Source: a virus | Lineage: Duplodnaviria > Caudoviricetes | Strand: one strand, 5' to 3' | DNA length: 64,000 bases | IMG/VR virus record: IMGVR_UViG_3300013103_000006 | Location: 1-64,000 of that record | In this document: in pieces, positions 2,196-9,595 of the stretch | How the letters are laid out: each line of letters begins with the position of its first letter | Position numbering within the stretch: position 1 is the stretch's first letter | The notes under the pieces: model-generated | Database searches by the model: none | Told to the model about the DNA's origin: nothing | Seen by the model: the letters and a program-made list of their open reading frames with translations, nothing else | Made by a program: the position numbers and the translations under genes

Positions 2196-2960
2196 ATGAT
2201 AAATGTTAGAGAATTCTTAAACGAAATAGAAAATAATCCTATTAGAAAAAGAATAATTGAATTAGAAGAGGAAATTTATCTCACTGGTGATAGAATTAAA
2301 ATGGATGCTATTGACGAGATTATCCAAGAAGCAGTTGCTCTTTTAACTACTAAAAGAAAGATAGTAGCCACAATGAATCAGGTATCATCATGGTGTAAAG
2401 AGGTATTAGTAATTTCTAAGAATGGTATTCGTAAACACTATGTTTATGATTATAACAAATATAAGCTAGGACGCTCAAGGGGTATGAGTTTAAATATAAA
2501 AACATATCTTCCAATATTAAAACAAGTTGATTTGAGAGAATATGCTACAAGAAACAAGAAAGAATTAGCTAAGGCCATCAATGATTTAATACGGATTATT
2601 CCCTGTTCGTTAATGGAGAACATAATTAAATATGAAACAGCTGAATATCCCCGTTATAAACTGGAACATAATATTATTGAGAGAACTAAAATAATAATCT
2701 CCATGAGGTATCATAGCAGTTTAGGGCGTTATAGGATGTACATTGAAAAAGCTAATGGTTACGAGAGCGTTGATTTTGTGAAGCTTACTGATACCATCTC
2801 TTATTTTGAATTTTTGCCTGAGGTGGAAACCGCTCTTAGAGAAAAATTTCTTCCAGCGATTAAAGAAAAATTTGCGGAATACAATAGAATCATAGAGTCA
2901 GAAGAGATGAAAGTTGTTGCTGATTATATAAAACTGATTAGGGGGTTGTCTTCTTTATGA
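2196..2960 (+). CDS. hypothetical protein
   Basis: 254 aa, stop overlaps the vWA gene start (ATGA). Confidence 0.75.
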   Translation: MINVREFLNEIENNPIRKRIIELEEEIYLTGDRIKMDAIDEIIQEAVALLTTKRKIVATMNQVSSWCKEVLVISKNGIRKHYVYDYNKYKLGRSRGMSLNIKTYLPILKQVDLREYATRNKKELAKAINDLIRIIPCSLMENIIKYETAEYPRYKLEHNIIERTKIIISMRYHSSLGRYRMYIEKANGYESVDFVKLTDTISYFEFLPEVETALREKFLPAIKEKFAEYNRIIESEEMKVVADYIKLIRGLSSL

Positions 2961-4144
2961 ACGAAGAAGCTAAACTTAAAATTACAAAAGCTAGAGTGTC
3001 ATTACAAAAAGATCAGCCATTCCTATCTTATCTGATAATGCATCTGATTCCTAAAGAGGACATAAGGGTTAAAACCGCTGGAGTAGATGAAGATGGCTAT
3101 CTATATTATAATCCAGACTTCATAAATAATCTCAGCAACAGAGAGTTAATAGGAACCATGGCTCATGAGGTTCTTCATTTATGTTTAGAACATCTTAGGA
3201 GGAGAGGTGGTAGGAATCCTACTCTTTGGAATATAGCTACTGATATAGCTGTTAACTATATCGTAATTGATGATTTAAAATTTAATCTTCCTGAAAATAC
3301 ATTCAAGCCAAACCATTACGGCAAAATAGATTTGTTTGGTATCACTCAGGTTAGTTTCAAGAACAAACCAGCAGAGGAAATTTATGAAGAGCTATTGAAA
3401 CTCCTTAAAGAACATGTAGGGAAGAAAAGCATATCTTCCTATCAGTTTGACAAACATATAGAAGAGAAACAAGGAGCTTCAGCTAGGGGTAAAGAAGGAA
3501 ATAGAAAACCTCCTGATTGGAAAAAGATATTTGCTGAAGCTATTGAATACGCTAAACAAAGAGGTGAACTTCCTGGTGGTATAGAGAGGTTATTCTCTGA
3601 ATTACATAATCCCAAACTCCCTTGGAATATTCTTCTAGCTAAATATATTTCCAAGACCCTTCCAGTTGATTATACTTATATCAGACCATCTAAAAAAAGC
3701 TATACTCTGAAAACATATCTTCCTAGTGTTTTAAAAGAGAACTTGGATGTCATCGTAACGATAGATACTTCAGGTTCAATAACTGAAGATACGTTAACTG
3801 ACTTCCTATCCGAGCTTTTAGGTATTCTAAGAAGCTACAAAACCAATTTAACAGTCATATACGGAGACGCTAAAGTTCAAAAAGTAAAAGAGTTTAAAGC
3901 TTATTCTCAACCACATGAAATACTAAGAGAAGCTCCAGTTGGTGGTGGAGGAACCGATCATGAACCAATCTTTAAATATATTGAACAGAATCTTAGAAAA
4001 GCTAGAGTAGTAGTAGCATTCACTGATGGGTACACTAACTATCCGAAAAATTGTAGTATCCCAACCATCTGGGTTCTCTCTGAAAAAATAAATAAGGAGT
4101 TTCTTCCACCGTTTGGAGAGGTGATATATTATGACCGGAGATGA
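2957..4144 (+). CDS. DUF2201-type metallopeptidase plus vWA domain protein
   Basis: HEVLH zincin motif, WN.ATD..VN, C-terminal IDTSGS (MIDAS), GGGGT, FTDG. Confidence 0.85.
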   Translation: MNEEAKLKITKARVSLQKDQPFLSYLIMHLIPKEDIRVKTAGVDEDGYLYYNPDFINNLSNRELIGTMAHEVLHLCLEHLRRRGGRNPTLWNIATDIAVNYIVIDDLKFNLPENTFKPNHYGKIDLFGITQVSFKNKPAEEIYEELLKLLKEHVGKKSISSYQFDKHIEEKQGASARGKEGNRKPPDWKKIFAEAIEYAKQRGELPGGIERLFSELHNPKLPWNILLAKYISKTLPVDYTYIRPSKKSYTLKTYLPSVLKENLDVIVTIDTSGSITEDTLTDFLSELLGILRSYKTNLTVIYGDAKVQKVKEFKAYSQPHEILREAPVGGGGTDHEPIFKYIEQNLRKARVVVAFTDGYTNYPKNCSIPTIWVLSEKINKEFLPPFGEVIYYDRR

Positions 4145-4518: not shown

Positions 4519-5652
4519 ATGAAATTATGTGTTAATCATAAGTATTTGAAGCAGGTGATACATTTAGCAAGAGAGCAAAAGAGAAGCCTATTTATTTGGG
4601 GTGGTATTGGAATAGGAAAATCCTATACAGTGAAACAAACTGCTGAGGAAATGGCTAAAGAGGAAGGGAGAAAATTTTATGACTTCACCAAACTTACAAA
4701 AGAGGATATAGCTGAGATAGAGAACAATCCTTCAAAAGCATTTCTATACTATGACATTCGATTATCTCAATTTGACCCATCGGATTTAAGAGGACTTCCC
4801 TCTATTAATGGAAAGGAGACTGTTGACTGGAAGATTCCTACATGGGTTAAACTCTTTTCGCTACCAAATATAGCTGGAATGATATTCTTTGATGAATTAA
4901 ATCTAGCTCCACCGAGCATTCAGGCTTCAGCTTATCAAATAATTCATGACCGTTGTATTTCAGACACTCCTATAAGTGATAAGGTTGTTGTTATTGGAGC
5001 TGGTAACAGAACTGAAGATAGAGGCAATGTTTATGAACTAGCTAAACCATTACAAAATAGATTCCTTCATGTTGAACTAGAGATTCCATCTGTTGATGAT
5101 TGGTCAAAATGGGCTTTTGAAAACCAGGATATCGATGATAGAGTGGTAGTATTCCTTCAGAATAGACCTGCTTTTCTATATAAGGTATCTGAGAGAGCTG
5201 GAGATGAAGCATTTCCAACTCCTAGAAGCTGTGAATGGTGGGGCAAACTAATTAAAGACACTGAGGATCTAGAGGAGATAGAGAGAAGAACAGCACTAGC
5301 TGTTGGCACTGAAGTAGCCTCAGAGTTTGTAGCATTCCTTAAACTTAAAAAGAGTATCAATTTCCAAGAAATCCTAGAGAATCCTGAGAAAATAAAAGAA
5401 ATACCAGATGAAGAGGTTCACTTGAAATACGCATTGATTTCCCTAATTCTAGACTGGTATGGAAAGCAGAGAAAGGATACCAAGACTCTTAAAAAAGTCC
5501 TTGAAATGGCATCTAATCTCCAGCCAAAAGAATTTAGCATTCTACTTCTAAGAGGTATAAGAGCTAAAAATCCAAGCTCATTCATGAAGCATATAGTAGA
5601 GAATAAGGAATTCTTTGAATATGCTAAAAGAGAAATCCTTCCATATCTATAA
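4519..5652 (+). CDS. MoxR-like AAA+ ATPase
   Basis: Walker A GGIGIGKS, Walker B IFFDELN, AGNR, sensor LQNRF, PTPRS; near the vWA gene. Confidence 0.85.
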   Translation: MKLCVNHKYLKQVIHLAREQKRSLFIWGGIGIGKSYTVKQTAEEMAKEEGRKFYDFTKLTKEDIAEIENNPSKAFLYYDIRLSQFDPSDLRGLPSINGKETVDWKIPTWVKLFSLPNIAGMIFFDELNLAPPSIQASAYQIIHDRCISDTPISDKVVVIGAGNRTEDRGNVYELAKPLQNRFLHVELEIPSVDDWSKWAFENQDIDDRVVVFLQNRPAFLYKVSERAGDEAFPTPRSCEWWGKLIKDTEDLEEIERRTALAVGTEVASEFVAFLKLKKSINFQEILENPEKIKEIPDEEVHLKYALISLILDWYGKQRKDTKTLKKVLEMASNLQPKEFSILLLRGIRAKNPSSFMKHIVENKEFFEYAKREILPYL

Positions 5653-6479: not shown

Positions 6480-6866
6480 ATGGCTAAGAGGTTAAAGATA
6501 GGAACGGTAACCATTCATGGTGTTGTAAAAAGAACCACTCCTTTATGGGCACAAGCATTTCGACTACAACCATCTCAGCGATTTAGAATTATGTTATTCT
6601 TTACTTATGACTATCCTGATTTAATAGACTATATACCAGTACTTAGAAACCATCCAGATTATAACTGGTATGTCACCCAGAAAGGATATAGGGTTGGAAC
6701 AAAACTCCAAACTTATTGGAAATATATGTATTATATCGAAGGAGACATTGAGGATATAAAAGAGAGTTTGAAACATATCGGTGACAGAATCAATAATGTG
6801 GAGTTTGCTCTAAGAGAGGATGCTGAAAGGAAGCTCATGAGTTTATTATTGGAAGTAGCATTATGA
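6480..6866 (+). CDS. C-terminal-tag family protein 1
   Basis: Ends AERKLMSLLLEVAL. Confidence 0.7.
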   Translation: MAKRLKIGTVTIHGVVKRTTPLWAQAFRLQPSQRFRIMLFFTYDYPDLIDYIPVLRNHPDYNWYVTQKGYRVGTKLQTYWKYMYYIEGDIEDIKESLKHIGDRINNVEFALREDAERKLMSLLLEVAL

Positions 6867-7156
6867 TGGTTGATGACAAAATCTATTTAGGTGATGGCGT
6901 TTATCTTCATGTTATTCAGGTAATTCAGAATACGATAGTCTATTATCTAGAAATTAAACGCCCAAAGAAGTTGAATAGCCCATTCATCTGGGATAGTAAG
7001 CGAAATATCTATAGATCATTCTCAGATTTCATAAAACTAAAGAATGGTAGCTCTGGTTTGCCATTCTATTTAATGAAACTAGAAGAGCAAGGTTATAACC
7101 TCAAATACTCCTATGAAGATATCCTCGATATTCTGAAGCTAAAATATAAATTATAG
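6863..7156 (+). CDS. C-terminal-tag family protein 2 (divergent)
   Basis: Ends YEDILDILKLKYKL. Confidence 0.65.
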   Translation: MMVDDKIYLGDGVYLHVIQVIQNTIVYYLEIKRPKKLNSPFIWDSKRNIYRSFSDFIKLKNGSSGLPFYLMKLEEQGYNLKYSYEDILDILKLKYKL

Positions 7157-7282
7157 AGGCGATGGATAAATGAAAGAAGATGATTTAGAAAAGATTTGGG
7201 AGTCTATCTACAATATCTACGATGAGTTAAATGAGCTAAGAGAGAAGATTCTCAAAATTAAACCTCGGTGAGGTTATGCAAG

Positions 7283-7576
7283 ATGACCCAAACTATAGGA
7301 TGGATTTATGACTCCAGAATCTACCTAACAATTGATTCAGATAAGAAATTTAGACTATATTTTTATTTGCTCGATAAGTTGAACGTCGAGCACTTCACAA
7401 AAGAAATCATAGGTGGGCATTATCCTGGGTTATCAATATTGCAATACACCTCAAAACCTCTGACAAAGCAACAAGTTTTAGATGTTTGTGAATATTTGAA
7501 ATATAACTATTCCGCCAAAATCATCGATGATTTAGATGAATTCCTAGATAAATTCCTTCTGGAGACTCTACTATAG
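7283..7576 (+). CDS. C-terminal-tag family protein 3 (paralog of 7915-8208)
   Basis: Ends LDEFLDKFLLETLL; KPLTKQQV..VCE.LK. Confidence 0.75.
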   Translation: MTQTIGWIYDSRIYLTIDSDKKFRLYFYLLDKLNVEHFTKEIIGGHYPGLSILQYTSKPLTKQQVLDVCEYLKYNYSAKIIDDLDEFLDKFLLETLL

Positions 7577-7630
7577 CTTTTTTTGGTTAGGTCGTGATTA
7601 CTAAATTATTCATAGTTTATCAATGGAAGG

Positions 7631-7906
7631 TTGATTAACATGAAGCATCTCATTGGTTATAAGGTAAATACGATTAGTGGTGAGCATACTAAGGTATTTA
7701 TGAGAACTGAATGTAACTCATCATCGATTACTGTCGAGACTGAAGGAATTTATCCATGGGTTATAAATATTTATGAATTTCCTACACCGAGAAAGTTACA
7801 GAATTACATTCAATGTCTCCTAGAAACCAATGATTTTATTAAATTTAAGCCAGTTGAAAATCTAGAATATATTTTAACCATAGCTATATTAGAAGCTAAA
7901 TTATAA
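7631..7906 (+). CDS. C-terminal-tag family protein 4
   Basis: Ends LEYILTIAILEAKL. Confidence 0.7.
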   Translation: MINMKHLIGYKVNTISGEHTKVFMRTECNSSSITVETEGIYPWVINIYEFPTPRKLQNYIQCLLETNDFIKFKPVENLEYILTIAILEAKL

Positions 7907-7914
7907 GTGATATC

Positions 7915-8208
7915 ATGAAGCATAAGATAGTCATCGGATGTATTCACGGTTCAAATTTGTATTTGGGCATGACAGACGAGGAAAAATTGGTTTTATATTT
8001 CTTTCTCGATGTGAGGAGGAAATTCATTCATTTCAGGCGATATCCCACACTCTTTGCAAGTGAAGGTATTTATTCATATGTAGCCAGACCTCTTGATAAA
8101 AGGGAGGTAATAGCGATATGTGAAACTCTCAAAAGAGAAGCTCATGCTGATATCATTGATAACCTAGATGAAGTAATCGATAGGTTTCTATTAGAAGCAT
8201 TACTGTAA
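7915..8208 (+). CDS. C-terminal-tag family protein 5
   Basis: Ends LDEVIDRFLLEALL; RPLDKREV..ICE.LK. Confidence 0.75.
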   Translation: MKHKIVIGCIHGSNLYLGMTDEEKLVLYFFLDVRRKFIHFRRYPTLFASEGIYSYVARPLDKREVIAICETLKREAHADIIDNLDEVIDRFLLEALL

Positions 8209-8219
8209 AGGATGATAGT

Positions 8220-8621
8220 ATGTCCAGCTCTGGAATCTATCGCTATCAGATAATCGCTAGGCTCTACTCTAAGAAATATAAAAATAAATACTATCCATTA
8301 TACTTAGAAGCTCTCTTAACTAAGAAGAATCAAGTAAAATTTAATATAGAATTTGAGTTTCCTTACGAGGTTCAAGTATACTCAATGGATGGTCGTTATC
8401 CCTCAGCTGGTTGGAGTTCTCTTCCTAGATATCTCATTGCCTTTCCAGTCAAAGATGATTCTGGTAAGTATTTATATAAGCATTTCTCAAATAAATTAAC
8501 AAGGAGCCAAGTCATTGACTGTCTATCTAAACTGGAGAAGTATACAGACATTGTAATTAAATGGGAAATTCCAGACCTAGAGGCCTTTCTAATTGCAATG
8601 GAGCTAGAAGCAAAGTTATGA
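8220..8621 (+). CDS. C-terminal-tag family protein 6
   Basis: Ends LEAFLIAMELEAKL. Confidence 0.75.
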   Translation: MSSSGIYRYQIIARLYSKKYKNKYYPLYLEALLTKKNQVKFNIEFEFPYEVQVYSMDGRYPSAGWSSLPRYLIAFPVKDDSGKYLYKHFSNKLTRSQVIDCLSKLEKYTDIVIKWEIPDLEAFLIAMELEAKL

Positions 8622-8950
8622 TGGCTACTTGGGAGATTAGTATGATAATTAAGAAAAACAACTGTTATGAAGGTGCAACTTATAAGCTTGGAACCTTCAC
8701 AAATAACGCTGGTGAGGAATACAATATAATCTTAATCATTCATTCTAGAGGTTTTGAGCTAGGTTTCGAGACATTTGTTGAGCTAGGCTTAGAGACATTT
8801 GGTGTGACTATGTTTTGCATGAATTTCCCTACAAAGAAGAAGCTGGTGGAATTCTTAGAATGGGCTAAAGAAACTCAAGGTTGGAATCTTAATCTTCCAG
8901 AGCCATTAGAGAATGCAATAGATAAGCTTATTCTAGATGCAAAGTTATAG
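8618..8950 (+). CDS. C-terminal-tag family protein 7
   Basis: ATGA-coupled to the previous gene; ends LENAIDKLILDAKL. Confidence 0.7.
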   Translation: MMATWEISMIIKKNNCYEGATYKLGTFTNNAGEEYNIILIIHSRGFELGFETFVELGLETFGVTMFCMNFPTKKKLVEFLEWAKETQGWNLNLPEPLENAIDKLILDAKL

Positions 8951-9009
8951 TGTTACGAAATTCAAATTACAAGACTTATACCATTCATGATTCGCATTTC
9001 GTAACACTA
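8948..9009. repeat. palindromic element copy 1 (14-bp perfect arms)
   Basis: TAGTGTTACGAAAT-N34-ATTTCGTAACACTA, internal ATACCATTC. Confidence 0.9.
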
Positions 9010-9164: not shown

Positions 9165-9305
9165 ATGCGTTTTATAGATTGTAAGGGTTGTAGATGGCTA
9201 GGTCATAGAGTCACCATATATCCATATTGTTGGTATTATAGGAAGCATATAAGGGAGATAAAAGAATGTAATTATAGAATAAGGAGGGATAGAAAATGCA
9301 ACTAA
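9165..9305 (+). CDS. 46-aa Cys-rich microprotein
   Basis: GGAGGT RBS at 9148; DCKGCRW...YCW...ECNY. Confidence 0.5.
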   Translation: MRFIDCKGCRWLGHRVTIYPYCWYYRKHIREIKECNYRIRRDRKCN

Positions 9306-9595
9306 CTCCTGTGCAGAAATTAGCTTATGAGATAGTATACTCAAAGGAAATCCCAGTAACTGCTCTTGAGTATCTCAATAATTCTGGTTTCACTTTTAGA
9401 ACAAAAAATGATTTACAGGTCATGATATTCTCTGATGGCCCTAACTTTACTATAAAAGTTCTGGAGAGAGATAATAAGAACAGTGTCAATGTAGCCAATG
9501 AAATTAAGCTAAAGAAATTAAACCTAAGCATACTTAAGAAAATAATAGAGAATGCTCTAGCTTTATTAACAATAAGAAGGCTAGAAAAATTATGA
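9296..9595 (+). CDS. hypothetical protein
   Basis: 99 aa, AAGGAGGG RBS. Confidence 0.7.
   Translation: MQLTPVQKLAYEIVYSKEIPVTALEYLNNSGFTFRTKNDLQVMIFSDGPNFTIKVLERDNKNSVNVANEIKLKKLNLSILKKIIENALALLTIRRLEKL

Follow-up and report, generated by a model that had tools for sequence, protein, structure and literature searches.

Several groups of viruses carry small genes that have multiplied within one genome or small proteins that have one short segment in common. The multigene families (MGF) 110, 360 and 505 of African swine fever virus (ASFV) and the gene arrays of jumbo phages such as coliphage 121Q consist of tandem, same-strand and fast-diverging copies, which lie in a variable region and retain a short conserved signature segment. 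The capsid-targeting sequence of T4 is an N-terminal peptide of about 10 residues that occurs on unrelated proteins and is cleaved by the prohead protease. Here we describe seven small genes, p1 to p7, on the plus strand at positions 6480-8950 of the virus record IMGVR_UViG_3300013103_000006 (Duplodnaviria; Caudoviricetes), of which positions 1 to 64,000 (64,000 nucleotides, the window) were analysed. In archaeal viruses, 26 of 35 AcrID1 homologues occur in four rudiviruses, where they are clustered and have a minimum identity of 7.3%, and functional diversification is suspected for these paralog sets (PMC11065993). The literature on archaeal-virus multigene families and on DPANN viruses offered little beyond that study.

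An earlier note, made from the sequence of the window, had pointed out that the seven proteins end in the same 14-residue segment, and had read it as a constant address attached to variable payloads. Our analysis favours a different explanation, to which we give a probability of about 0.6: the seven genes would be tandem paralogs, specific to this virus, that encode one small alpha/beta protein, in which the last helix is conserved and the remainder has diversified.

A shared ending in seven tandem genes

The array consists of seven plus-strand genes of 88-133 codons within 2.5 kb, with gaps of -4 to 63 nt and one interposed open reading frame (ORF) of 33 codons. Gene starts were refined from the positions of ribosome binding sites (RBSs) and from the gene calls of the protein library, and the lengths of p3 (97 residues), p4 (88 residues) and p7 (110 residues) match these independent calls. 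The most divergent member is p1 (6480-6866), a basic protein of 128 residues and isoelectric point (pI) 9.3 that ends in AERKLMSLLLEVAL. Its stop codon is overlapped (ATGA) by the start of p2 (6863-7156; 97 residues, basic, tail YEDILDILKLKYKL). The small ORF that interrupts the run, noticed earlier, is located at 7170-7271; it has its own RBS, its product would be helical, and it is not a family member. It is followed by the acidic p3 (7283-7576; tail LDEFLDKFLLETLL), by p4 (7640-7906; tail LEYILTIAILEAKL), by p5 (7915-8208; 97 residues, tail LDEVIDRFLLEALL) and by the basic p6 (8220-8621; 133 residues, tail LEAFLIAMELEAKL), whose stop codon is again overlapped (ATGA) by the start of the acidic p7 (8618-8950; tail LENAIDKLILDAKL). 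The genes p1 and p6 have the same TTATGATGG junction to the next gene. The pI of the seven bodies ranges from 4.8 to 9.3; by net charge, three members are basic and four are acidic to near neutral.

Two further features were seen inside the array. Positions 8754-8801 of p7 hold a 24-nt tandem duplication in perfect register (FELGFETF / VELGLETF), the copies of which are 92% identical. A run of seven T directly follows the p3 stop codon and begins the 63-nt gap to p4 (7577-7639), the only real intergenic space of the array; judging from its sequence, this gap could be an internal terminator or promoter.

All seven 14-residue tails quoted in the earlier note were found, exactly at the stop codons. 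The strict motif [LAY][DE]xx[LIVM]xxxxL[EDK]xxL-stop occurs in 7 of the 187 window ORFs of at least 50 residues, and all seven are inside the array block. For comparison, 24 related viral loci were retrieved from IMG/VR with an alignment of relatives of the MoxR-like ATPase encoded upstream of the array, a protein with many relatives (searches for related loci with p5 alone or with this MoxR alone gave nothing), together with 80 cellular loci that contain MoxR relatives. The motif was matched by none of the ~7,700 ORFs of these 104 loci, being absent even in relaxed form from the ORFs of at least 50 residues in the viral loci and from all 4,941 ORFs of the cellular loci. When the last 14 residues of each protein were shuffled, the motif arose with a probability of 0.0005-0.003 per protein, a value that is only a guide for a motif defined post hoc. 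Because the motif had been written after the seven were seen, motif-free tests were used as well. In an in-register score against the tails of five core members, p2 ranked first and p1 second of 2,111 outside ORFs, and most of the 21 pairs that the seven can form were among the 35 best of 11,026 in-register tail comparisons. The shared ending of the seven is real and far beyond chance. Two other window ORFs were considered as members and rejected: ORF 880-1326 matched the profile with E 0.02 but is a coiled-coil false positive, and the end of ORF 9296-9595 ('p8') looks alike but ranks only 106th of 4,711.

Compared in pairs, the members are 40-45% identical over their last 14 residues and ~20% identical over the remainder. 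Of the 14 tail residues, 8-10 (57-71%) are hydrophobic. The conserved Leu positions are encoded by TTA, CTA, CTG and TTG, and all three stop codons are used across the genes. Since the Leu codons vary and only two of the seven genes have an overlapping downstream start, the constraint acts on the protein, and it is stronger on the tail than on the body. Hence, a common role of the C-terminal helix is a reasonable assumption. Comparison with the MIM1 motif of ESCRT-III, (D/E)xxLxxRLxxL(K/R), gave no correspondence, as the leucines are spaced differently and no counterpart of the Arg is present.

Bodies, predicted fold and distribution of the family

The earlier note had recognized one clear paralog pair, the genes at 7283 and 7915, and had described the other bodies as looking unrelated. 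The pair is evident (p3/p5, phmmer E ~1e-17); the supposed unrelatedness of the rest does not hold. Residues -60 to -15, that is, the 46 residues ahead of the tail, were compared with the equivalent residues of 587 small genes that are likely to be real. Without the tail, 8 of the 21 pairs were similar at p<0.05 (p3-p5, p3-p6, p5-p6, p4-p7, p4-p5, p2-p4, p2-p6 and p2-p7), compared with 0.75 pairs on average and 2 at most in random seven-gene sets, and a looser null gave the same picture. These links connect the six members from p2 through p7 with one another, p2 being joined to p4, p6 and p7 at p 0.036-0.042. The paralogs p4 and p7 remain significant with the tail removed (z 4.4-4.9). In hhalign, p3+p5 matched p6 with E 0.0025 over 46 columns and, without the tail, with E 0.024 over 29 columns; the p6 body has 30-32% identity to that of p3. 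In a MAFFT alignment, the members have a strand (EGIYxYV-like) in common ahead of the tail, as well as a capped helix with the pattern P-L-T-K-x-x-V...C..L. At the DNA level, the ends of p4, p6 and p7 have a 16-nt match in common; another match of 21 nt between the ends of p2 and p4 is out of frame and was judged to be chance in AT-rich DNA.

An AlphaFold2 (AF2) model of p5, for which the alignment consisted of five paralogs, has a predicted local distance difference test (pLDDT) score of 75 and a predicted template modelling score (pTM) of 0.69. Its elements are E3-10, E13-19, E25-32, E47-49, E52-54, H62-76 and H84-96, corresponding to the topology b1-b2-b3-(b4-b5)-a1-a2 with three meander strands, a poorly defined hairpin and two helices. 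The tail is helix 2 (84-96), which follows a 7-residue loop and has the best pLDDT of the model (84-94). In this model, the tail is part of a compact domain and not a peptide on a flexible linker. The AF2 model of p1 (pLDDT 56) has strands followed by helices at 90-105 and 112-127, so that it also ends strand-a1-a2, and the ESM Atlas models have pLDDT 0.90 and pTM 0.88 for p2 and pLDDT 0.40 for p1. Fold searches with the p5 model gave noise in all cases (Foldseek against PDB, best E 0.89; VIA-align, best Z 5.0; BFVD, best E 0.14). The Atlas neighbours of p2, a YbjN-like protein and the XPB damage-recognition domain, have template modelling scores of at most 0.5 and were unusable.

The seven-gene family is an orphan, with relatives neither in sequence nor in fold. 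None of the seven proteins shows anything above noise in Pfam or PHROGs, in searches that covered neighbouring genes as well. In a word-indexed search of 5.8 billion clustered proteins, p5 and p1 matched only themselves, and a five-member profile run against 1.84 billion representative proteins retrieved the five themselves and one repetitive false match of 758 residues. No match to p2 or p6 was found by tblastn in 50,697 phage records. The family is absent from all 24 viral loci, which keep the pair of MoxR and its von Willebrand factor A (vWA) partner, and from the 80 cellular loci; moreover, when the family was compared by hhalign with small ORFs of its closest relatives (loci L001 and L002), no match fell below E 0.01.

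According to the paralog reading, tandem duplication of one small gene would have made the seven, and the copies would then have diverged almost beyond recognition. Each copy would encode a protein in which two C-terminal helices come after an N-terminal beta-sheet, the second helix being the '14-residue tag'. The tail would lie at a constant distance from the stop codon because the stop was inherited with each duplication, and helix 2, being very hydrophobic and probably packed onto helix 1 and the sheet, would for this reason be the best-kept part; possibly it is also a dimer or hetero-oligomer contact. Sheet and loops would be free to change, as the ranges of length and pI suggest. By analogy with early-gene families that have multiplied in other archaeal viruses (PMC11065993), a function in host interaction or counter-defence is probable, and the family may be a diversifying set for this purpose, presumably expressed early and together with the upstream MoxR/vWA block.

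Several observations weigh against this explanation. The body of p1 has no similarity to that of any other member in the 46-residue test, so p1 is joined to the family by its tail, its position and the TTATGATGG junction only. A profile of the five core members fails to retrieve p1 or p2, and the links between subgroups are weak singly (p 0.02-0.05). Both models of p1 are poor, and the p5 model rests on a five-sequence alignment, from which only one model in five had a pLDDT as high as 75. In a helical-wheel projection, the 1-5-8-12 face is on the side away from the invariant Leu-10 and Leu-14, and one face of the tail helix could, from this arrangement, be a contact for another molecule. The family has been seen in no genome besides that of the window virus. 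The sequencing runs that contain the stretch comprise one marine metagenome DNA run, with no RNA run listed.

Thus, the picture of payload and address stands in one part, the tail being the more constrained segment and constrained as protein, and fails in another, six of the seven payloads being related and AF2 placing the tail within the fold. The earlier note had also considered that the proteins might be no more than distant paralogs sharing a fold, their tails under no special constraint: remote paralogy applies to six of the seven, and the absence of special constraint does not apply. A T4-type address on unrelated proteins is not what the bodies show.

Gene ends in related viruses and competing explanations

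The related loci were scanned without bias for same-strand neighbours with similar last 14 residues. Such pairs make up 3.6% in the viral MoxR loci, 0.97% in the rest of those genomes and 0.43% in the cellular MoxR loci. Large tail-sharing arrays were found in L004, L005, L006/L007 and L009, and smaller ones in L011, L012, L017 and the Woesearchaeota contig L025. The arrays of L004-L009 (L004:6327-17449, L006:1567-20275, L005:11153-17294 and L009:8569-19620), from related viruses of 138-155 kb, belong to one family of ~80 residues with an SH3/KOW-like N-terminus (MKFKVGDYV) and the end LTKEE-x-MVE-x-L. Of its 52 non-redundant members in the fetched loci, 46 end in register, and it has no Pfam or PHROG assignment. 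In three genomes of 138-155 kb, all 32 matches of this family are located in a span of 3-21 kb (~20 kb in the two large arrays) that holds or adjoins MoxR. A separate family of ~200 residues, ending in hydrophobic-acidic-x-Leu, lies close upstream of MoxR in four loci (L025:858-1463, L005:9302-9967, L009:9385-9975 and L004:8619-9257), at a distance of ~1.1 kb in L025.

The common ends of these relatives have a different origin from those of the window. In the MoxR-proximal 20 kb of L002-L012, L017 and L025, 22-58% of the likely genes end in Leu and many others in Ile, compared with ~13% Leu-ending genes in bacterial loci and 0-26% (median ~11%) in distal parts of the same genomes. Among the genes of the relatives, 72 end in E-x-[LI]. 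Of these, 60% use GAG for the Glu, compared with 28% within gene bodies (p 4e-8), and 47% have a G as the last letter of the codon before it, compared with 15% within bodies (p 1e-10); in 52 of the 72, the ATG of the next gene overlaps or directly adjoins the stop codon. The phi-E-x-L/I ends of the relatives (phi, a hydrophobic residue) are a translated RBS plus the overlapping start of the next gene, a dual-coded translational-coupling cassette that looks like a protein tag. Because the DNA shows this RBS-like codon choice and overlapping ATG, a clade-wide C-terminal address was dropped for the relatives. As to a relation between the SH3/KOW-like family and that of the window, hmmsearch with the profile of the former retrieved no window ORF at E<10, and hhalign of the window-family profiles against an iterated 72-sequence alignment of the SH3/KOW-like family reached E 0.06 over 16 columns, with the relatives' tail paired to window helix 1.

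Paralogs or not, the seven proteins could carry the tail as an exposed amphipathic docking helix by which all of them bind one partner in trans, the bodies being cargo or specificity modules. Candidate partners would be the MoxR ATPase with its HExxH/vWA adaptor, for which the conserved acidic residues might act as ligands of the metal ion-dependent adhesion site (MIDAS), a host complex or a virion-loading site. The twofold conservation of the tail relative to the body at the protein level would fit such a helix, and the position of Leu-10 and Leu-14 opposite the main hydrophobic stripe, as read from the sequences, would leave a second face for the partner. The array is moreover co-directional with MoxR, begins less than 1 kb downstream of it, and is accompanied by a vWA protein that keeps DxSxS and HExxH; the clustering of the SH3/KOW-like family at MoxR and the excess of tail-sharing pairs in viral MoxR loci point in the same direction. 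However, co-location may merely reflect a common early and variable genome region, the relatives' common ends are largely a nucleotide signal and not a protein tag, and AF2 sets the tail inside the fold with the highest confidence after a short loop. We regard a docking helix as unlikely. As for MoxR/vWA, named as a candidate partner in the earlier note, family-level co-occurrence is lacking, because the 24 viral loci with the pair contain neither the family nor the motif.

A more specific form of the docking idea is that the helix hands diversifying paralogs to, or recruits targets for, the co-transcribed MoxR AAA+ ATPase and HExxH/vWA adaptor. The locus would then encode a remodelling machine whose client or adaptor subunits evolve fast and can be exchanged, and other archaeal virus lineages would use unrelated small-protein families for the same purpose. 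We consider this distinctly unlikely; if it were true, the locus would offer a tractable case for finding the targets of the widespread and unexplained viral ATPase-adaptor pairs.

Co-assembly of the seven proteins, with the C-terminal helices forming a bundle or ring in one hetero-oligomer of different paralogs, would account for a very hydrophobic helix that is present in all members and has hydrophobic residues on two faces. The net charges of the basic and the acidic to near-neutral members are complementary, and the tight gene linkage suggests co-expression. However, paralogs so divergent need not co-assemble, and we give this arrangement very little weight.

That the shared ending of the window genes is itself a by-product of a translated RBS and the ATGA start of the next gene, as in the cassette of the relatives, is hardly credible: the p1 end TTG GAA GTA GCA TTA TGA fits that cassette and p6 has the ATGA overlap, but an overlapping start exists at only two of the seven genes (p1/p2 and p6/p7), the codon at position 11 is GAA in four and GAG, GAT and AAA in one each, the Leu-10 codon ends in G in only two of the seven, the RBS comes after the stop at three junctions, and the motif, 42 nt long, extends far beyond any RBS. 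Because the window tails lack the signature of the relatives, dual coding was rejected for the window, perhaps except for the last few residues of p1. The explanation by diverged paralogs with a conserved last helix remains the one that we prefer.

Gene context and comparison with known systems

The window virus is an uncultivated tailed virus with archaeal features, including a family-B DNA polymerase, a ribonucleotide reductase, an HK97-type capsid protein and inteins, and the GC content of the window is ~35%. Upstream of the array, the gene order on the plus strand is the vWA gene, MoxR and two further genes, with short gaps. The MoxR-like AAA+ ATPase gene is located at 4519-5652. The protein encoded at 2957-4144 (plus strand) matches DUF2201_N and DUF2201. 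Its HExxH sequence (HEVLH) and its MIDAS-type DxSxS sequence (DTSGS) are both retained, and it belongs to the peptidase-like vWA adaptors that accompany MoxR in many phages. In cellular metagenome-assembled genomes (MAGs), the nearest matches of the viral MoxR come from two contigs, L025, assigned to Woesearchaeota (45%), and L026, assigned to Pacearchaeota (40%), and the sequence of this ATPase therefore suggests a DPANN host. The host is probably not a crenarchaeon. The Woesearchaeota-binned contig L025 (JAHWIB010000021.1) itself looks viral or provirus-like, with MoxR, vWA and many small genes.

The end of the array gene block is marked by a palindromic element at 8948-9009, which starts at the p7 stop codon and has 20-nt arms that are 90% complementary. 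Between this palindrome and the next genes lies a Cys-rich ORF of 46 codons (9165-9305) with an RBS and ~7 Cys including one CxxC pair, which may encode a small zinc-binding protein.

Our results add an orphan protein family to the few sets of early genes known to have multiplied in archaeal viruses; families of this kind are leading candidates for functions in host take-over or counter-defence. They also give a warning for this virus group, where common C-terminal ends arise in two ways, as the structural helix of diverged paralogs, which is how we read the window, or as a translated RBS and start in the relatives; only the first is a protein feature.

Compared with described systems, the window family resembles the AcrID1 sets of SIRV1/2/3 in consisting of small early-region proteins of an archaeal virus that are multiplied in one genome, clustered and extremely divergent. 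It differs from AcrID1 in that no sequence or fold relation exists between them and in its strikingly fixed C-terminal helix. Like the ASFV multigene families and the jumbo phage arrays, it is tandem, same-strand and fast-diverging with one short conserved segment left, but it has only seven copies in a genome of ~77 kb. With the T4 capsid-targeting sequence it has in common the idea of one short peptide that serves several small proteins as an address, whereas the window segment is C-terminal, part of a predicted fold and present on related proteins. Finally, as in the coupled chains of L004-L009, neighbouring small genes end in hydrophobic-acidic-x-Leu-stop and two window junctions use the ATGA overlap; unlike in those chains, the window tails are free of the RBS and start signature, and the motif is three times longer.

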